A stretch of DNA of 64,000 nt from Candidatus Fervidifonticultor quartus (GTDB taxonomy: Bacteria; Sysuimicrobiota; Sysuimicrobiia; Sysuimicrobiales; Humicultoraceae), in NCBI GenBank assembly GCA_031458775.1, contig JAVKJV010000002.1:42233-106232 (forward strand), written 5' to 3'. The notes under the pieces are model-generated. The model was not told where the DNA came from. It made no database searches and saw only the letters and a program-made list of their open reading frames with translations. Positions 1,122-46,065 of this stretch are shown here, in pieces; the stretch's first letter is position 1; every line of letters starts with the position of its first letter. The position numbers were made by a program, and so were the translations under genes.

Positions 1122-4503
<3,382 letters not shown>

Positions 4504-4514
4504 GCGCGCGCGCC

Positions 4515-5042
4515 ATGAGTCTCGAACCGACGGTCGCATCGAGGGCGATCTACCGCGGTCGCGTGGCGACGCTCCGCGTGGATGACGTGCGTATGCCGAG
4601 CGGCCGCATCGAGCGCCGCGAGATCGTCGAGCACCCGGGCGCCGCGGCCGTCGTGCCGGTGACCGACGACCACGAGGTTGTGATGGTCCGGCAGTATCGC
4701 AAGGCGGTGGAGAGCGCACTCCTTGAGATTCCGGCCGGGACGCTCAACGCCGGCGAGACCGCGCTTGCCTGCGCGCACCGCGAACTGGCGGAAGAAACCG
4801 GGTTGGCCTGCGATGTCATGATGCCGCTGATCACCTTCGTGCCGTCGCCGGGGCTGCTGACCGAGGAGATCACGCTCTTCTTGGCCCGGGGCTTGCGGCC
4901 GGTACCCCGGATGGTACAGGCTGAGGAAGAGGGGCTGCAGGTCGTGCGCGTGCCGGTCGACCAGATTGCGCAGCTGATCAGCCGGGGGGACGTGCGGGAT
5001 TCGAAGACCATCATCGGGTTGATGCTCCTCTCGTGGCGGTGA
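4515..5042 (+). CDS. nudF: NUDIX hydrolase, ADP-ribose pyrophosphatase-like
   Basis: Nudix box GTLNAGETALACAHRELAEETG. N-terminal beta region YRGRVATLRVDDVRMPSG is typical of ADPRase. Start set at ATG 4515 (MSLEPTV...). Confidence 0.8.
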   Translation: MSLEPTVASRAIYRGRVATLRVDDVRMPSGRIERREIVEHPGAAAVVPVTDDHEVVMVRQYRKAVESALLEIPAGTLNAGETALACAHRELAEETGLACDVMMPLITFVPSPGLLTEEITLFLARGLRPVPRMVQAEEEGLQVVRVPVDQIAQLISRGDVRDSKTIIGLMLLSWR

Positions 5043-5060
5043 GCCGGTGATGCGGCGATC

Positions 5061-6059
5061 GTGACGTCGCCTGACCGCGGCCGGACGCGGGCCGAGTCCC
5101 GGGCGCTCAGCGCGGCCCTTGACGAGTTCCTCACCTACCTGACCGCCGAGCGCGGGCTTGCGCCCCGCACGGTCACCGCCTACCGTCACGACCTCGAGGA
5201 GTTCATCACCTTCGCGGCTCGCCGGGGCGCGCGCGGACCCGCCGACCTGCACCGGTCCGCGATCACCCTCTACCTGCTCGGCCTGCGGCGCCGGGGTTTG
5301 GCCGACACATCGGTCGCGCGGCGCCTGGCCGCGGTACGCGGATGGACCGGGTTCCTACTACGTACGGGTGCCATTGTCGACGATCCGGCACTGGACGTGA
5401 CGGCCGCGCATCGGCCGCGCCGTTTGCCCGACGTGCTCACGGTGGAAGAAGTGGAACGGCTGCTTGCGCAGCCGCGCGGCGACCGACCCCAGGTGCTGCG
5501 CGATCGGGCGATTCTCGAGCTGCTCTATGCCGCCGGCTTGCGCGTCAGTGAGCTGGTGGCCCTTGACGTGGGCGACGTGCACCTGGCGGTCGAGTACGTG
5601 CGGTGCGTCGGCAAGGGCTCCAAGGAGCGGATCGTGCCGATCGGGTCGGCTGCGGTGCGCGCGCTCCAGCGCTATCTCGCGCTCGCGCGGCCGGTGCTTG
5701 CAGGCGGGCGGCCGCAGCCGGCGCTGTTCCTCAACCGTCGGGGCGGCCGGCTGACCCGTCAGAGCGTCTGGACGCTGCTCCGGCAGTGCGCGCGGTCCGC
5801 GGGCCTGCGCAAGCCGATCCACCCGCACACGCTGCGGCACTCATTTGCCACGCACCTGCTGGACGGCGGCGCCGATCTGCGGGCGGTCCAGGAGATGCTG
5901 GGCCACGCGAGTATCGCCACGACGCAGGTCTACACGCATCTCACGCGGGCCCGGCTGCGCGAGGTGTATCGGCGAGCGCACCCGCGCGACCGCATGACCA
6001 TCCCCATCGGTCGAGGCGCGGATCGCTCTCGACCCGCGCCGTCGGCGCACCATGGCTAA
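5061..6059 (+). CDS. xerD: Site-specific tyrosine recombinase XerD (chromosome dimer resolution)
   Basis: Core-binding N-terminus [26 protein letters not shown]. Catalytic region [12 protein letters not shown]...[14 protein letters not shown]...[13 protein letters not shown] (R-H-R-Y). Bacillus-like xerD-deoB-punA context. About 28-aa C-terminal tail overlaps the deoB start. Confidence 0.88.
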
Positions 6060-7227
6060 GGCCAGTTGCGTCATCGTGCTGGTCCTCGACAGCCTTGGCG
6101 TCGGCGGCGCACCGGACGCCGCGGCCTATGGTGACGAGGGCAGCGACACGCTGGGGAATTGCGCGGTCGCATCTGGCGGCGTGCATCTGCCGGTGCTGGA
6201 GCGGTTGGGCCTGGGCGCGATCACCGAGGTGGCCGGGGTGCGACGGCGCGACGACCATGAGGCCGCGGTCGGCGTGATGCGTGAGCAGTCCGCAGGCAAG
6301 GACTCGACCACCGGGCACTGGGAGCTGGCCGGGCTGGTGGTCTCCAGGCCCTTTCCCACGTACCCCAGCGGATTCCCGGCCGAGGTGATTGACGCGTTCT
6401 CCAAGGCGATCGGCCGACCGGTGCTCGGCAACGTCGCCGCGTCGGGCACCGAGATCATCAAGGCGTTGGGTGAGGAGCACGTGCGGACCGGTGCGCCCAT
6501 TGTGTACACCTCGGCCGACAGCGTGTTTCAGATCGCCGCGCACGAGGAGATCGTGCCGCCGGACCAGCTCTACGCGTGGTGCCGTGAGGCGCGGACGATT
6601 CTCCAGGGCGAGCACGCGGTCAGCCGCGTGATCGCCCGGCCGTTCGTGGGGCTGCCGGGCGAGTTCCGGCGCACGGATCGCCGTCGGGACTTCTCACTGC
6701 CGCCGACCGGACCGACGGTGCTCGATGCGCTCGCCGCGGCGGGCCTGGCCGTGGTCGGGGTGGGCAAGATCGATGACCTGTTCGCCGGGCGCGGACTCAC
6801 CGAGGCGATCCACACACACGACGACATGGACGGCCTCACGCAGACCGTGGCCGCGATGCGACGGGTGGGGCACGGGCTGGTGTTTACGAACCTCGTCGAG
6901 CTCGACACGGCCTACGGGCACCGCAACGACGCGATCGGTTATGCTCGGCACCTCGAGGCCATTGACGCGCGCCTGGTGGAAGTCCTCGACGCGTGCGGAC
7001 CGGACGATGTGCTCATCATCACCGCCGATCACGGCAACGATCCGACGACGCCGAGTACCGACCACTCGCGTGAGCAGGTGCCGGTGCTGGCCTGGCGGCC
7101 CGGGCTGCCGCGCGGTCGCCATCTCGGTCTGCGGCGGTCGTTCGCCGACGTCGGCGCGACCGTCGCCGCGGCGCTCGGCGTGCCGTGGGCCGGGGCGGGC
7201 ACGGCGTTTTGGACGGCCCTGGAGTAG
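6052..7227 (+). CDS. deoB: Phosphopentomutase
   Basis: [16 protein letters not shown]-terminus and [11 protein letters not shown] metal-binding motif, 391 aa. Confidence 0.92.
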
Positions 7228-7291
7228 GCGCCGACGGCTTTCTGCCGAAACCCATCAGCACGATGGCTGGTGCGCGAGAGAGGGGAGATCG

Positions 7292-8116
7292 ATGAGCTGG
7301 GCATTGCGCGCTCGTGAGGCCGCCACCGCGATCCGCCAGCGGACCCGCCGCGTGCCTGATGCGGCGGTGATTCTCGGATCAGGGCTGGGGGCGCTGGCAG
7401 ACCAGGTGACCGTGGACGCCGCATTGACGTTTCAAGAGATTCCGCACTTCCCGCGGACCAGCGTGGAGGGGCACCACGGCCGGCTCCTGATCGGCACGCT
7501 CGAGGACCGGGCTGTGGCCGTGATGCAGGGTCGGGCCCACTTCTACGAGGGATACGCGATGGCGGAGGTGGCGTTTCCCGTTCGTGTGCTGCATGCGCTG
7601 GGCGCGCCGATCTTGATTGTCACCAACTCGTCCGGCGGACTGAACCGGCACTTCAAGGCGGGCGACCTCATGGTCATCGCCGACCACATCAACTTCATGG
7701 GCACGAATCCGCTCGTCGGGCCTAACGAAGACGAATTGGGGCCCCGGTTCCCGGACATGTCCGAGCCCTACGACCCCGCGCTCATCGAGCTGGCCGAGGC
7801 CGCGGCGCTGGAGGTCGGCATTCCGCTGCGCAAGGGCGTCTACGTCGGCGTCTGCGGCCCGTCGTACGAGACCCCAGCAGAACTGCGCATGATGGCGCGC
7901 TGGGGCGCGGACGCGGTGGGGATGTCCACCGTGCACGAGGTGATCACCGCGCGGCACGCCGGCATGCGCGTGCTGGGCCTGTCGGCGATCACGGACATGG
8001 CGACCGGTGAGGGCCACGGCAAGGTCACCCACGAGGACGTGCTGGCAGCCGCCAAGCGGATTGAGCCGCAGTTCGTGCGACTCGTGCGCCGCATCGTGCG
8101 AGGGCTGCCGCGATGA
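7292..8116 (+). CDS. punA: Purine nucleoside phosphorylase (trimeric PNP-I type)
   Basis: ILGSGLGALAD, HFPRTSVEGHHGRLLIG, GMSTVHEVITARHAGMRVLGLSAITD. ATG 7292 follows GAGAGGGGAG RBS-like purines. The 5' part of track ORF 6725-8116 overlaps deoB out of frame. Confidence 0.92.
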   Translation: MSWALRAREAATAIRQRTRRVPDAAVILGSGLGALADQVTVDAALTFQEIPHFPRTSVEGHHGRLLIGTLEDRAVAVMQGRAHFYEGYAMAEVAFPVRVLHALGAPILIVTNSSGGLNRHFKAGDLMVIADHINFMGTNPLVGPNEDELGPRFPDMSEPYDPALIELAEAAALEVGIPLRKGVYVGVCGPSYETPAELRMMARWGADAVGMSTVHEVITARHAGMRVLGLSAITDMATGEGHGKVTHEDVLAAAKRIEPQFVRLVRRIVRGLPR

Positions 8117-41760: not shown

Positions 41761-41814
41761 GGGTGCGAAATCTCCGGCAACGCCGTATCCGACCGATCCA
41801 GGAGCCGTGACGCC

Positions 41815-43209
41815 ATGCCGCGTGAACCCATGCCCGATCTCGTCGTGCTCCTTCCCGGCATCTGCGGCAGCGCGCTGCGCAAGGACGGTCGCGATCTGTG
41901 GGCGATCTCCGGGGACGCGGCGAGCCGCCTGCTCTTCAGCCTGGGCCGCAGCCTCGGCGACCTGAGGCTCACCGACGACCCGGCGGACGTCGACGATCTC
42001 GGCGACGGCATCACTGCCGACCGGCTGATCGCCGACCTGCACCTCATCCCCTATCTGTGGAAGATCGACGGGTACACGAAGGTGGCCGACACACTCAAAG
42101 CGACCTTCGAGGTCACTCCCGGCCGCAACTATTTCGAGTTTCCCTACGACTGGCGTCGTGACAACCGCGTGGCGGCCCGCCGCCTCCAACGGGAGAGCCG
42201 ACGATGGCTCGCCGACTGGCGACAGTCGTCCGGGAACGCGGACGCCAAGCTGATCCTCATCGGCCACTCGATGGGCGGCGTCGTGTCCCGATACTTCCTC
42301 GAATGTCTGGACGGCTGGCGCGAATGCCGGGCGCTCGTGACCTTCGGCACACCGTACCTGGGGGCCCTCAACGCCCTCGACTTCCTCGCGAACGGGATGC
42401 GCAAAGGCCCGGCCGGCGTCGTTGACCTTTCGGGTCTCATCCGTTCGCTGACGTCCGTCTACCAGTTGCTGCCGGTCTACGACTGCTATGATCCTGGCGA
42501 CGGGACGCTGGTGACGGTCGGCAAGACCACGGGCGTCCCCAACGTGGATGCCGGTCGCGCCGCGGCCGCCTACGCGTTCCACCGCGAGATCGCCGACGCG
42601 GTCGCGCGGCACCGGCAGGACGACGAGTACGTCCGCCAGGGGTACAAGATCTTCCCCATCGTGGGGACGCACCAGCCGACGCAGCAGTCGGCGCGCCGGA
42701 CGGCAACCGGCGTCGAGATGGCGCAGGCCCTGGCCGGCCGCGACGACGGCGGTGACGGCACGGTGCCGCGGGTCTCGGCCACGCCGGTCGAACTGCAACA
42801 GTTGGGCCGTGAGATGTACGCGGCGACGCGCCACGCGTCCCTCCAGAACGCCGACGCGGTGCTGGCGCAACTGCACGGTGTCATCACGGGACTGTCCCTG
42901 TCGGTCCCGAAACCGTTCCCGGTGCGGCTCGACGTGGTCCGGCTCGGCCTCGACCTCGACGACGCCTACTGGACCGACGAGCCGGTCGAGGCGCGCGTGC
43001 GCGGCCGCGCCGGCGAGGATGTGGTCGTGACCGTCAGCAGCGCAGCCACCGGCGCCCAGGTGGCCGCGCGGCCGATTGCCCTTCAGGATGCCCCGTGGAC
43101 TCCTGCGCCATTCAGTCCCCTGCCCGCCGGAACATATCGCATCACGGTCTCCGGGCATGAACGTGTCGAGCCCGTGGCCGACATCTTTGCGGTCTTCGAA
43201 CATCGCTAG
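41815..43209 (+). CDS. LCAT/PGAP1-like alpha/beta-hydrolase (lipase/acyltransferase) with C-terminal beta-rich domain
   Basis: Nucleophile elbow LILIGHSMGGVVSRYF (Ser152), GGDGTVP (Asp314), TRHASLQN (His340). FEFPYDWRRDN is the LCAT-family YDWR block. About 100-aa C-terminal beta-strand-like region (RITVSG..., VVVTVSS...). AGGAG RBS 10 nt before ATG 41815. Confidence 0.75.
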   Translation: MPREPMPDLVVLLPGICGSALRKDGRDLWAISGDAASRLLFSLGRSLGDLRLTDDPADVDDLGDGITADRLIADLHLIPYLWKIDGYTKVADTLKATFEVTPGRNYFEFPYDWRRDNRVAARRLQRESRRWLADWRQSSGNADAKLILIGHSMGGVVSRYFLECLDGWRECRALVTFGTPYLGALNALDFLANGMRKGPAGVVDLSGLIRSLTSVYQLLPVYDCYDPGDGTLVTVGKTTGVPNVDAGRAAAAYAFHREIADAVARHRQDDEYVRQGYKIFPIVGTHQPTQQSARRTATGVEMAQALAGRDDGGDGTVPRVSATPVELQQLGREMYAATRHASLQNADAVLAQLHGVITGLSLSVPKPFPVRLDVVRLGLDLDDAYWTDEPVEARVRGRAGEDVVVTVSSAATGAQVAARPIALQDAPWTPAPFSPLPAGTYRITVSGHERVEPVADIFAVFEHR

Positions 43210-43259
43210 CCGCGCGACCCCGCCGATGCGGGGGATTCCGAGATCTGGAGGCGGGCCAC

Positions 43260-44057
43260 ATGGCATGTCGGGAGAGTTCTATCGATTTTCTGCGGGGCTT
43301 GGGATATACGCCCATCCAGTTGCCGCGTGAACGCATTCACCCGCTCGACCTGGTGGGGAAACTGGCGGGCGGCGGCCGCGCGAAGCAACTGGGTTCACTC
43401 ACCAAGCTCGTCGTCGGCGCGGTGCCGGCACCCGAGATTGCCCGTGACGAGCAGGTCGGACAGGTGAGCGGCAAGCGGACCGACAAGCTCGATATCGGGA
43501 TCGGGCTCAATCTGCTTTCGAAGTTCTTCTCGGCGCTTGGGGTCTTCTCGGCCTCGATCAGCGCCGCGTTTGCGCGGGCCAAGCAGGTCGAGTTTCAATA
43601 CGAGAACGTGACCTCCGATTCGGTGGACATCGTCGACCTGCGCGGCTATCTGGGGAAGCGGCCGTCCCTGGACCCGAACAACCCGGTGGTGGACGATTAC
43701 TTCATCGGCGACGGCCAGGTGGTGGTGATCACGCGAACGCTCAAGTCCACCGGGTTCGGCGTGTTGGCGTCCGACGAGAGGGGCAACAAGGTGGACATCG
43801 ACGTCGACGTTCTCAAAGAGGATCTGGCCAAGGCCGGAGTGGATGCCGCCAGGGGCTCAGAGATGAAGGTATCGTTCAAGGGCACCAAGCCGCTCGTCTT
43901 TGCCTTTCAGGGACTGATGCTGCGCATCGACACCGGCGGATTACGGGTGAGCGACGATGTGCCCGCGGAGCTGGGCATCTTCGCGTCCAGGCCGGCTGCT
44001 GCCGGTGAGGCCGCCCCGGTGGTGCTCACGCGGAACGGGCTGCTGCGGCTCGACTGA
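43260..44057 (+). CDS. Bacterial gasdermin (bGSDM)-like pore-forming protein
   Basis: 265 aa with no TM helix or signal peptide. Starts MAC (Cys3). IDFLRGLGYTPIQLPRERIHPLDLV, KRTDKLDIGIGLNLLSKFFSALG, VEFQYENVTSDSVDIVDLRGYL, VVVITRTLKSTGFGVLASDERGNKVDIDVDV and KVSFKGTKPLVFAFQGLMLRID follow the bGSDM block pattern as I recall it. Short about 30-aa C-terminal tail. GGAGG RBS 8 nt upstream. Protease gene immediately downstream. Confidence 0.72.
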   Translation: MACRESSIDFLRGLGYTPIQLPRERIHPLDLVGKLAGGGRAKQLGSLTKLVVGAVPAPEIARDEQVGQVSGKRTDKLDIGIGLNLLSKFFSALGVFSASISAAFARAKQVEFQYENVTSDSVDIVDLRGYLGKRPSLDPNNPVVDDYFIGDGQVVVITRTLKSTGFGVLASDERGNKVDIDVDVLKEDLAKAGVDAARGSEMKVSFKGTKPLVFAFQGLMLRIDTGGLRVSDDVPAELGIFASRPAAAGEAAPVVLTRNGLLRLD

Positions 44058-44093
44058 TCAGGCGCCGGCGCACACAGAGAGGGAGACCGGGCG

Positions 44094-45491
44094 ATGGAGT
44101 TCATATCCACGAACGGCATCGACCTGCGCACCGGGCGGCCGGTGTTTCACCGGGTGCCGTTCCAGGAGTTCCTGCAGGTCTTCCACAACCGGCTGCCGGC
44201 GCCGCGCGAAGACGAGGAGCGGCGCCGTGCCACGACGAGCGCGCTGAGCACCACGCGCAGTATCTTCGCGGCCACGACGAACCTCAACGATCCCGTCGCG
44301 GCCGGCTACGGCGTGGTCTGTGCGCCGGGCCGCGTGCCCCTGCTCGACGGGGCCCTGGCGCCGCTGCTGGCGTGGCGCCAGGTGAAACCCGAGCACCGGC
44401 TTGTCCTTGACATCGCCCAAGTGGGGATCGGCGGGTTATCGGACTGGATGGACGAACACATCACGTTTCGCGACGGGCCGTACTACTGGTTGCTTGTGGG
44501 CGGTCCGGCCGAGCTGCCCTTTGACCTTCAGTGGATGCTGGATGCGGGCAAGGCCGCGGGCCGTATTGAGTTCGACGATGAGGCTGAGTACGCGGCGTAC
44601 GCGGAGCGTGTGATCCGGGCCGAGCAGGTGCTCGCCGCGTCACACGGGGCACCGCCGGTGTTCTTCTGGTCGACCCTCCACGACGACGTCACCAGGCTGA
44701 GCAACTGGTACATGTGCACGCCGCTGGTGAAGCGGCTGGAGAGCCACGGCGTCAACGTGACCTATCGCGAGAAGGCCGACGCTACGGTGGACGCGTTCTG
44801 GAGTGCGGCCAGGGCGTGGGGGACGCGCGGCGGGCTCGTCTACACGGCCAGTCACGGTGGCATGCTGCCGAACGACGACGCCGAGCAGCCTGCGCGTCAG
44901 GGTGCGCTCGTGGCCATGGACGGCACGATCGAGGGTCAGCAGGTCGATCGGGAGCGGTCGGCGTTCCCGCACTCGGTCGTGTTCAACTTCGCTTGCTACT
45001 CGGGAGGGACGCCCTCGCACAGCGACTTCAATCACTGGGTTCCCGAGTACCACCTGGGCCGGTACATTCCGCAGACGGCATTCGTCTCGCGGCTGCACCG
45101 GCGGTGGGTCGCGCACCCGGCCGGCCCGCTGGCCGCGGTGGGCCACGTCGAGCCGGCGTGGCTCCACTCGTTTGCGAATCCGGACAATCCGGACGACGTC
45201 ATGTTCGACGCCGCGCTGGACACCGAGTGGGGGGAGCGTATCCAACCGTTCCGTACCTTCACCGACCGGCTGGTAAGGGGGTATACCGTCGGCTACGCGA
45301 TGGAACTGTTCGGGTTTCTCTATGATCAACTGGGGAATGACATCGCCCGGCGCATCAACCGGTACCTGCGCGACAACCCGGGCGGCGCGGTGAACGAACA
45401 GGAGTTGCGCAAGATGGCGACGCGCTGGATCAGCCGCAACGACTATCAGAACTACGTGGTCTTCGGCGATCCGGCGGTGCGCATCGCGTGA
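44094..45491 (+). CDS. Clan CD cysteine protease (caspase/gingipain C25-like), probable gasdermin-activating protease
   Basis: His-Cys dyad in caspase-like spacing: LVYTASHGG (His254, CAC 44853-44855) and VVFNFACYSGG (Cys301, TGC 44994-44996). C25-like blocks PYYWLLVGGPAELPF and C-terminal NYVVFGDPAVRI. AGGGAG RBS before ATG 44094. No NACHT, TPR, WD40 or LRR-like repeats visible. Confidence 0.7.
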   Translation: MEFISTNGIDLRTGRPVFHRVPFQEFLQVFHNRLPAPREDEERRRATTSALSTTRSIFAATTNLNDPVAAGYGVVCAPGRVPLLDGALAPLLAWRQVKPEHRLVLDIAQVGIGGLSDWMDEHITFRDGPYYWLLVGGPAELPFDLQWMLDAGKAAGRIEFDDEAEYAAYAERVIRAEQVLAASHGAPPVFFWSTLHDDVTRLSNWYMCTPLVKRLESHGVNVTYREKADATVDAFWSAARAWGTRGGLVYTASHGGMLPNDDAEQPARQGALVAMDGTIEGQQVDRERSAFPHSVVFNFACYSGGTPSHSDFNHWVPEYHLGRYIPQTAFVSRLHRRWVAHPAGPLAAVGHVEPAWLHSFANPDNPDDVMFDAALDTEWGERIQPFRTFTDRLVRGYTVGYAMELFGFLYDQLGNDIARRINRYLRDNPGGAVNEQELRKMATRWISRNDYQNYVVFGDPAVRIA

Positions 45492-45582: not shown

Positions 45583-46065
45583 GTGAGGGCCAACCTTGAC
45601 GATCCGGCCCATCAGCAAGCCGTGCTTGCGATGGTCAACGCGTATGCCCGGGATCCTATGGGCCAGGGCCGCGATCTGCCCGAGACGGTGCAGCGCGACC
45701 TCGTGCCCGGGCTGCGCCGGCATCCGACAACGCTGATCTTTCTCGCCTACGACGGTGAGCGGCCGATCGGCGTCGCCGTCTGCTTCGTGGGGTTCTCGAC
45801 GTTCGCCGCCAGGCCGCTTGTCAACATCCACGATCTGTCGGTTGTTGCCGGCTACCGCGGGCAAGGGGTGGGTCGCCGGTTACTGGAGCGCGTCGAGTCC
45901 GCAGCGCGCGAGTTGGGCTGCGCGAAGATCACGCTCGAGGTGAATGCGGACAACGTCGGCGCGCAGCACCTCTATCGCCGGTTCGGGTTCCGCGGTGGCG
46001 GGTCCGGTGACGACCTCAACCGGGTGTGGTTCCTCCAGAAGCGGCTGACGCCCGCCGGGTCGTGA
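45583..46065 (+). CDS. GNAT-family N-acetyltransferase
   Basis: Acetyl-CoA motif VVAGYRGQGVGRRLLERVESAARELGCAKITLEV...NVGAQHLYRRFGF. Confidence 0.82.
   Translation: MRANLDDPAHQQAVLAMVNAYARDPMGQGRDLPETVQRDLVPGLRRHPTTLIFLAYDGERPIGVAVCFVGFSTFAARPLVNIHDLSVVAGYRGQGVGRRLLERVESAARELGCAKITLEVNADNVGAQHLYRRFGFRGGGSGDDLNRVWFLQKRLTPAGS

Follow-up and report, generated by a model that had tools for sequence, protein, structure and literature searches.

Does a lipase gene that stands directly upstream of a bacterial gasdermin and its protease belong to the same cell-death device, or is it only their neighbour? This question is raised by a three-gene locus found at positions 41,815 to 45,491 of a 64,000-nucleotide stretch (the window) of contig JAVKJV010000002.1 of Candidatus Fervidifonticultor quartus (assembly GCA_031458775.1). 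In the reading favoured here, to which a probability of about 0.5 is given from sequence comparisons and structure models, the locus would be a two-gene gasdermin suicide module with an accessory lipase acting as a second, protease-linked membrane effector. The three open reading frames (ORFs) and their ribosome-binding sites, in window coordinates, are the following:

41815..43209, + strand: ORF1, 464 aa, ATG start, predicted LCAT/LPLA2-fold serine hydrolase
43260..44057, + strand: ORF2, 265 aa, ATG start, bacterial gasdermin (bGSDM)
44094..45491, + strand: ORF3, 465 aa, ATG start, predicted stand-alone clan CD cysteine protease
41801..41804, + strand: ribosome-binding site GGAG of ORF1, read from the sequence, 10 nt 5' of the ATG at 41815
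43247..43251, + strand: ribosome-binding site GGAGG of ORF2, read from the sequence
44081..44085, + strand: ribosome-binding site GGGAG of ORF3, read from the sequence

The three ORFs are co-directional, with spacers of 50 nt (ORF1-ORF2) and 36 nt (ORF2-ORF3), and in all of them the ribosome-binding site lies 8-10 nt ahead of the respective ATG. A preliminary description of the stretch had reported this layout, with its GGAG-type ribosome-binding sites and its housekeeping-type flanks, and the coordinates and motifs match the sequence. The GC content of the window is about 70%, and a 785-aa antisense ORF overlaps ORF1. Because long ORFs arise by chance at this composition, ORF length is no evidence for genes, and the reality of the three genes therefore rests on homology.

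Sequence comparison identifies ORF2 firmly as a bacterial gasdermin. It matched the PADLOC bGSDM model (1.5e-65) and the NCBIfam prok_gasdermin equivalog (NF051890; 187 bits with a cutoff of 100, 3e-55), and its residues 3-264 were aligned with residues 4-263 of the chain of the Vitiosangium bGSDM in PDB 7N51 (E=6e-39, about 33% identity), as well as with 8SL0, a 237-residue pore-form chain. No match was obtained with the local Pfam copy, and PF26164 is precomputed for close relatives. The protein has no large C-terminal domain, only a short inhibitory-type peptide. Its relevant sites are:

43266..43268, + strand: Cys3, predicted palmitoylation site, aligned with the Cys at position 4 of 7N51
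43971..43976, + strand: Leu238-Gly239, predicted cleavage site, placed by residue count on the 7N51 alignment
43974..44054, + strand: residues 239-265, putative C-terminal inhibitory peptide, conserved as ...PVVLxRxGLLxLD

The Cys at position 4 of 7N51 is the palmitoylated residue, and its palmitoylation was inferred to be autocatalytic (Johnson et al. 2022); Cys3 is invariant in the alignment of the clade gasdermins (A5). Counted on the alignment, Leu238 is the counterpart of 7N51 residue 237, with which the 8SL0 chain ends, and positions 238-239 are conserved across the gasdermin clade as a hydrophobic residue plus Gly. The Runella CHAT protease requires Leu-Gly at P1-P1' (Johnson et al. 2022), and Leu238-Gly239 is the bond at which the protease would be expected to cut. 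In the peptide downstream, residues G260, L261, L262 and L264 are invariant in the clade. Truncation experiments have revealed that bGSDM proteins are activated by removal of the C-terminal peptide (Johnson et al. 2022), and by analogy an inhibitory role is predicted for tail 239-265. The kilobase that contains the gasdermin gene (positions 43001-44000) has the lowest GC content of the 64 kb, a mild dip to 0.647 with respect to the values of about 0.69-0.72 found nearby.

The gene located 36 nt downstream, ORF3, matched the 'chat' model of the PADLOC gasdermin system, PDLC02988 (3.6e-34, positions 7-422 of 455). Its AlphaFold model has a predicted local distance difference test score (pLDDT) of 89.9 and a predicted template modelling score (pTM) of 0.92, and the best Foldseek match was gingipain K (4rbm; 2e-7, probability 1.0), followed by Craspase TPR-CHAT and separase. 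Since the alignment with gingipain K spans 449 columns of the 465-residue model, the N-terminal third of the protein (about 190 residues) appears to be part of the two-subdomain protease fold. The catalytic residues, both invariant in a 25-sequence alignment that spans 28-71% identity, are:

44853..44855, + strand: His254 (ASHG), predicted catalytic His of the protease
44994..44996, + strand: Cys301 (FACY), predicted catalytic Cys of the protease

At the sequence level, no Pfam family was found in ORF3 at E<=0.01, the local CHAT profile gave no match at E<=10, and a search of the PDB with the ORF3 profile retrieved nothing significant, matches being obtained only in the fold search. Peptidase_C25 (PF01364), a family not matched by ORF3 itself, is found in many of its relatives at about 30% identity. 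An exhaustive phmmer search revealed 2,427 representative clusters at E<=1e-3, and the best 150 of these are mostly stand-alone proteins of about 465-480 aa, with some domains embedded in proteins of 600-1,600 aa. On these sequence and model data, ORF3 is assigned as a clan CD protease of a gingipain-like family that is distinct from canonical CHAT.

The bGSDM and 'chat' matches fall on adjoining genes, which is the arrangement by which a gasdermin system is called in PADLOC/DefenseFinder-type searches. A CARD-type (Lysobacter-like) gasdermin system is not the one present here, neither a trypsin-like CARD protease nor an NLR-like ATPase being found in the locus or the window. ORF2 and ORF3 are very probably a gasdermin-protease death module. 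The pair had been presented in the preliminary description as an established system, with a gasdermin in the middle and a caspase/gingipain-like protease (His254/Cys301) in third place, and these assignments stand on the PADLOC, NCBIfam and 7N51 matches of ORF2, on the Foldseek clan CD fold and invariant dyad of ORF3, and on the adjacent matches to PADLOC gasdermin-system models. The same description had regarded the protease without a sensor module as a departure from described architectures, a view that was not sustained: the 'chat' model equals ORF3 in length and was matched end to end, the stand-alone form is the commonest among the best 150 of the 2,427 clusters, and only 'some' of the gasdermin-associated proteases carry repeat or NACHT domains (Johnson et al. 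2022).

The element that these data leave to be explained is ORF1. This protein matched the Pfam LCAT family (PF02450; 52.5 bits with a cutoff of 21, 6e-14) only over residues 82-223, with additional Pfam matches to PGAP1 and DUF676. The AlphaFold model (pLDDT 86, pTM 0.87) consists of an alpha/beta-hydrolase core (residues 1-358 approximately), a low-confidence linker (363-371) and a C-terminal beta-sandwich (about 375-464). The features of ORF1 are:

42268..42270, + strand: Ser152 (GHSMGG), predicted lipase nucleophile, invariant
42754..42756, + strand: Asp314 of the lipase triad, invariant
42832..42834, + strand: His340 of the lipase triad, invariant
42895..42936, + strand: inter-domain linker, residues 361-374, candidate protease-accessible site, pLDDT <50 at residues 363-371
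42937..43206, + strand: C-terminal beta-sandwich (Ig/CARDB/MG-like), residues 375-464, all-beta in the model

Conservation of the triad was judged on family alignments of 40 and 35 sequences. When the core was compared by Foldseek, lysosomal phospholipase A2 (4x92; E=8e-15, TM-score 0.50/0.61) and LCAT (4e-12) were retrieved, and the tail retrieved CARDB, complement MG and GbpA domains, together with the C-terminal domains of BlEst2 lipase (propeptide form) and PlaB. The C-terminal domains of BlEst2 have been described as inhibitory, and the beta-sandwich of EstA3 helps in the binding of long-chain substrates; PlaB from Legionella, a weak fold match, was solved with thio-NAD and is thus a nucleotide-ligand binder. 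The linker is variable in length and sequence across the lipase family, with a family consensus DLG.FR that contains Leu-Gly, and it reads P.P.PFPVR in the clade that carries the three genes. Signal peptides and transmembrane segments were found in none of the three proteins. By sequence and model, ORF1 is a cytosolic LPLA2/LCAT-fold Ser-Asp-His hydrolase, predicted to be of the phospholipase A/acyltransferase type; the intact triad and the C-terminal beta domain claimed for it in the preliminary description are both borne out by the alignments and the AlphaFold model.

The evidence that links this lipase to proteases comes from its relatives. The family is very large (4,459 of 8,000 scored candidates at E<=1e-5), and 72 of its genome loci, with 26-58% identity, were examined within 6 kb by tblastn and iterated profiles. 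A CHAT profile built from the CHAT segments of lipase neighbours was run on 65 of the lipase loci, and 38 of them (about 60%) contain a canonical CHAT-domain protein, mostly within about 100 nt of the lipase and on either strand. The lipase loci span eight or more phyla (Acidobacteriota, Actinomycetota, Rokubacteria, Gemmatimonadota, Pseudomonadota, Bacteroidota, Chloroflexota and Myxococcota). Other partners include NACHT, TPR-PIN and TPR-cyclase proteins, and some lipases are located beside NACHT or NB-ARC proteins. The following loci (L numbers; lipases are given as P numbers) illustrate the range of arrangements:

L008:5950-9582, L016:5947-9933 and L020:3458-7465: lipase-CHAT fusions in a single ORF (1,211-1,336 aa), lipase N-terminal
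L011: lipase with a TPR-CHAT neighbour (Pfam)
L035:7417-10380 and the Rhodococcus/Nocardia loci L033-L048: protein of about 990 aa with CHAT, AAA ATPase and subtilase (S8) domains after the lipase
L051, Bradyrhizobium: lipase with a 688-aa CHAT protein as neighbour (Pfam)
L176: P0008 lipase (63% identity), followed 10 nt later by a DUF7363-CHAT protein
L177: P0012 lipase (60% identity), divergent from a four-gene block
L002: cyclase-NB-ARC-TPR protein, ORF3-type protease and lipase, no gasdermin

The fusion in L016 is confirmed by Pfam. The block in L177 comprises a 234-aa gene, an ORF3-type protease of 467 aa, a CHAP/PG-binding hydrolase and a CHAT-AAA-TPR protein. Among the 72 loci, an ORF3-type protease is present only in L002 and L004, where it is located immediately upstream of the lipase, in divergent orientation, beside STAND/TPR or CHAT proteins and without a gasdermin; judging from the gene content of these two loci, the lipase takes the effector slot there. 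From this survey of neighbours, the conserved association of the lipase family is with clan CD proteases and STAND-type sensors, and not with gasdermins. No description of a lipase-CHAT/STAND association was found in PADLOC or, within limited searches, in the literature.

Some additional observations were made in these loci. An extra CHAT gene is present just upstream of the lipase-CHAT fusion in L008 and L016. The Rhodococcus/Nocardia partner of the lipase contains two protease domains (CHAT and subtilase S8) in one protein. The region L177:1-7416, from a Logan contig (SRR18218238), is a multi-effector island in which the CHAT-AAA-TPR protein has more than 1,138 aa and a trypsin-PDZ protease is encoded downstream.

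The complete trio was found only in one subclade of Armatimonadota. The gasdermin-bearing loci of the clade and a related remnant, with the identities of their products, are listed below (GSDM, gasdermin; FADox, FAD oxidoreductase):

L073 and L075: trio in the same synteny, FADox-RibD_C-lipase-GSDM-protease-GNAT-MFS; lipase 67-70%, gasdermin 81-83%, protease 64-71%
L074: lipase and gasdermin adjacent, without the upstream Paa/FADox/RibD_C genes; lipase 70%, gasdermin 81%
L173: FADox-RibD_C-GSDM-protease at the same site, no lipase; gasdermin 75%
L174/L175: CHAT(partial)-GSDM-protease at another site, no lipase; gasdermin 72%
L168: GSDM-protease, then a convergent 430-aa CHAT gene; gasdermin 83%
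L160-L162: RibD_C-GSDM-MFS only; gasdermin 63%
L156-L159, L163, L164 and L169-L172: orphan gasdermins; gasdermin 56-58%
L178: decayed remnant; lipase 65-71%, protease 65%

In the remnant (L178:710-1908) the lipase is frameshifted, and a deletion that removes the gasdermin and the catalytic His joins lipase residue 253, approximately, to protease residue 272. An 844-aa patatin-DUF3376 gene adjoins this remnant on the opposite strand. Close to a deep-branching gasdermin, P0207 (58%; JGI 3300047160), a close lipase homologue is encoded 2 kb away, with a 393-aa gene between them and insertion sequence (IS) elements between and around. In a neighbour-joining tree of the gasdermins, drawn without support values, all the protease-linked gasdermins of the clade form one group and the orphans a separate clade; L173 is nested among the trio loci, which suggests a secondary loss of the lipase. 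On the distribution of these genes, the lipase is considered accessory: one subclade has it, and in others it has been lost or has decayed. Canonical CHAT genes beside the gasdermin-protease pair are found in L168 (2091-3380, - strand), convergent after the protease, and in L174 (1-495), upstream of the gasdermin. The nearest gasdermins from outside the clade, those of Vitiosangium, Ramlibacter and a betaproteobacterium, are accompanied by CHAT or LRR-CHAT proteins and by no lipase. Scans from the gasdermin side were of low yield (7 genomic and 5 metagenomic loci), and gasdermins diverge fast. A family-B DNA polymerase, with weak intein and LAGLIDADG matches, is encoded near the locus in L173 (4573-8382).

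The neighbourhood census answers the question, posed in the preliminary description, of whether the trio is conserved: it occurs in the one Armatimonadota subclade and is not a widely conserved unit. The idea that the lipase family as a whole keeps the trio together was rejected, since the tblastn and iterated-profile survey found a gasdermin within 6 kb in none of the 72 lipase loci.

A census was also carried out from the side of the protease. A search with the single ORF3 sequence led to one genome locus, and a tighter alignment led to 80 loci at about 30% identity (L076-L155). A canonical CHAT protein is present in 57 of the 80, in 35 of those within 300 nt of the ORF3-type gene, and the representative that was checked is a TPR-CHAT protein. 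As an example, in L132 a TPR-CHAT gene (2183-5254, about 1,000 aa) is located beside a C25-like protease gene (6001-7389). These gene pairs suggest a widespread two-tier clan CD protease system, in which a sensor CHAT protein would be coupled to a second protease and of which no description was found.

In about 23-25 of these 80 loci a family of about 270 aa is encoded a few nt 3' of the C25-like protease (for example L137:6665-7486, L081:8057-8914 and L094:8019-8816); its C-terminus is hydrophobic, and a related ORF of about 120 aa often comes next. The possibility that this family (represented by a 274-aa ORF) is a cryptic gasdermin was rejected, the hhalign probability being 0.1% and no Pfam or PADLOC match being found. 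It may be another effector.

With these elements, the sequence of events would be as follows in the two-gene gasdermin module with a second, protease-linked effector. A trigger such as phage infection or stress, perhaps relayed by a sensor encoded elsewhere, would activate the ORF3 protease, which would cut the gasdermin near Leu238-Gly239 and release the 27-residue C-terminal inhibitory peptide. The gasdermin body, palmitoylated at Cys3, would then insert into the inner membrane and form oligomeric pores that lead to cell death. The same protease would control the lipase, most plausibly by a cut in the exposed inter-domain linker that relieves it from the C-terminal Ig-like domain, and the freed lipase would hydrolyse phospholipids and make the membrane collapse irreversible. 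Since the lipase family is linked to clan CD proteases, both by fusions and by ORF3-type neighbours without gasdermin, the position of the lipase at this locus is unlikely to be accidental. By analogy with other systems, lipase and gasdermin, combined here, are most simply read as alternative effectors of caspase-like proteases. That the lipase is a functional part of the death module is probable; that it is specifically activated by the protease is a possibility to which somewhat less than even odds are given.

Several results weigh against this proposal. The locus is placed among housekeeping-type genes with no recognisable defence island, and neither a sensor gene nor a CHAT gene was found elsewhere in the 64-kb window. 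Gasdermins are absent from all 72 lipase-family loci, and neither a lipase nor a gasdermin is present in any of the 80 ORF3-family loci. The trio is restricted to one lineage, most of its instances sharing a vertical synteny, and the lipase is dispensable to the module, as L173 (at the same site) and L174/L175 carry gasdermin and protease without it. No PADLOC model matched the lipase. No convincing cleavage motif common to the gasdermin tail and the linker of the window lipase was found, and the Leu-Gly linker motif is absent from the trio clade. Finally, because L168 and L174 carry an extra canonical CHAT gene, it is uncertain which clan CD protease cuts the gasdermin of the clade.

The lipase could alternatively be an unrelated lipid-metabolism or housekeeping neighbour, inherited by synteny with the gasdermin-protease pair. 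This explanation, which is considered unlikely, would account for the housekeeping-type flanks, for most trio instances being found in the same context (FADox-RibD_C ... GNAT-MFS), for the pair without lipase in L173 and L174, and for the absence of gasdermins from the lipase loci. It does not agree with the clan CD proteases that about 60% of the loci, in many phyla, have next to the lipase or fused to it, nor with the adjacency of lipase and gasdermin, which persists when the upstream context has changed (L074) and recurs in the rearranged, IS-flanked locus of P0207.

Lower odds are given to a role of the lipase as regulator or sensor, in which it would sense a membrane or lipid perturbation or would bind and gate ORF3. 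Such a role would supply the sensing function that ORF3, without a sensor domain, lacks, and in L174 a CHAT protein occupies the position of the lipase upstream of the gasdermin; the Ig-like domain could bind a protein or ligand, and PlaB, the weak fold match, binds a nucleotide ligand. However, most lipase partners already contain TPR, NACHT or AAA modules, so a further sensor would be redundant there, and the strictly conserved triad argues for an enzymatic output, phospholipases being effectors in known systems.

The module may also serve a function other than phage defence, as a developmental or stress-induced death or lysis device, or ORF3 may be a broad-substrate executioner acting below a CHAT sensor encoded elsewhere; only a small probability is assigned to this explanation. 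Related gasdermin systems defend against phage (PMC10312443), and the changing gene content of one site (trio, pair, gasdermin only, remnant) is typical of defence or accessory genes. In favour of this alternative, the locus is chromosomal, is found in a housekeeping context and has been vertically inherited across the clade, and for the executioner variant the CHAT proteins of the ORF3-family loci (57 of 80), often TPR-CHAT, suggest two-tier systems, with CHAT genes beside the pair in L168 and L174.

LCAT/LPLA2 enzymes are transacylases with phospholipid donors. Although this chemistry and the position of the gene directly upstream of a Cys3 gasdermin could point to an action on the lipid anchor, either palmitoylation of Cys3 by an acyltransferase or its deacylation by a thioesterase, such a role is very improbable, as Cys3 is invariant without an adjacent lipase (P0204, P0208, P0209, L173 and L174), the palmitoylation was inferred to be autocatalytic (Johnson et al. 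2022), and more than 60 lipase loci contain no gasdermin, so that the conserved function of the family cannot be gasdermin-specific. Thus, among the three roles that the preliminary description had proposed for the lipase, that of a second effector is favoured by the pairing with clan CD proteases, that of a trigger sensor keeps the lower odds given above, and that of an enzyme that adds or removes the Cys acyl group is disfavoured by the invariance of Cys3 where the lipase is missing.

The genes around the locus are of housekeeping type, with an FAD oxidoreductase and RibD_C upstream and GNAT, MFS and DUF72 genes downstream (Pfam). A search for terminator-like and sigma-70-like sites between the three genes gave none, but in this high-GC genome the scan was near-empty across the whole 8-kb co-directional block and hence is uninformative. 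The GNAT gene (45583-46065) is located 91 nt downstream of the protease. It is present in the window and in L073, which bear the lipase, and also in L168, where the contig begins inside the gasdermin and the lipase status is unreadable; L173, which has no lipase, and L161, which has the gasdermin only, lack it. The co-variation of GNAT with the lipase is weak and could be coincidental.

The gasdermin-protease core of this locus is ordinary and extends the known bacterial pyroptosis-like modules to Armatimonadota, the lipase being the new element. Its family is very large and is not represented in PADLOC, and the partners encoded around the family members are overwhelmingly CHAT proteases and STAND NTPases. 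A more general proposal, which is tentative and rather unlikely to hold in full, is that the Ig-tailed LPLA2/LCAT-fold lipases are widespread phospholipase death effectors under the control of CHAT/clan CD proteases and STAND sensors, and that at this locus one protease fires both a pore and a phospholipase. If this were true, protease-licensed phospholipases would be a second major class of membrane-destroying effectors below bacterial caspase-like proteases, a 'lipase arm' of prokaryotic pyroptosis-like immunity alongside that of the gasdermins, with parallels in the effector swapping of CARD systems and in the lipases of fungal NLRs. Being compact, with a single protease of small size next to one gasdermin and one lipase and no large sensor, the trio would provide a convenient test bed for two questions: whether both effectors are under the control of the same protease, and what triggers a clan CD protease that has no sensor.

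When the locus is compared with known systems, its closest counterparts are the bGSDM systems with caspase-like (CHAT/C14) proteases from Runella, Bradyrhizobium and Vitiosangium (Johnson et al. 2022), with which it shares a gasdermin of about 265 aa, the N-terminal Cys, a short inhibitory peptide, a hydrophobic-Gly dipeptide at the expected cleavage position and a clan CD protease directly downstream, both proteins matching PADLOC gasdermin-system models. It differs in the protease, which is a stand-alone gingipain/C25-like protein whereas the experimentally studied Runella enzyme is a Roc-COR-CHAT protein, and in the addition of the LCAT-type lipase, no lipase or hydrolase being mentioned by Johnson et al. 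(2022). In the searchable literature no description was found of a gasdermin or CHAT protein paired with an LCAT protein or lipase.

At the level of the individual proteins, ORF3 shares with gingipains (C25), Craspase TPR-CHAT and separase the two-subdomain caspase-hemoglobinase fold and the His-then-Cys dyad, with only about 10-12% identity and without Ig/adhesin domains, secretion signal or TPR. In the same way, ORF1 has in common with LCAT/LPLA2 (group XV PLA2, PF02450) the alpha/beta-hydrolase fold and the Ser-Asp-His triad, but it is a predicted bacterial cytosolic protein with 15-20% identity and an extra C-terminal Ig-like beta-sandwich, and the partners of its family are proteases and STAND proteins instead of lipid-metabolism genes.

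Lipases as death effectors have precedents. Fungal NLRs use SesB-like and patatin lipases as effector domains (PMC12881547), predicted lipases that act as death effectors under NLR/STAND control, and the Pfam families PGAP1 and DUF676 have a match in ORF1 too. In fungi these domains form one protein with the NLR or receive their signal through amyloid motifs, whereas here the lipase is a separate gene that in its family is usually next to a CHAT protease. In the CARD/trypsin-protease systems, which provide phage defence, effectors of phospholipase or endonuclease type often take the place of the gasdermin (Wein et al. 2023, PMC10312443). Death is likewise governed by a protease in those systems, with gasdermin and phospholipase as alternative effectors, but their proteases are trypsin-like and have CARD-like domains, a STAND ATPase is included, and the phospholipase domain is fused to an endonuclease (PMC10312443). 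In the locus described here the protease belongs to clan CD, no ATPase is encoded, the predicted lipase has the LPLA2/LCAT fold, and both putative effectors are found together, not substituted one for the other.

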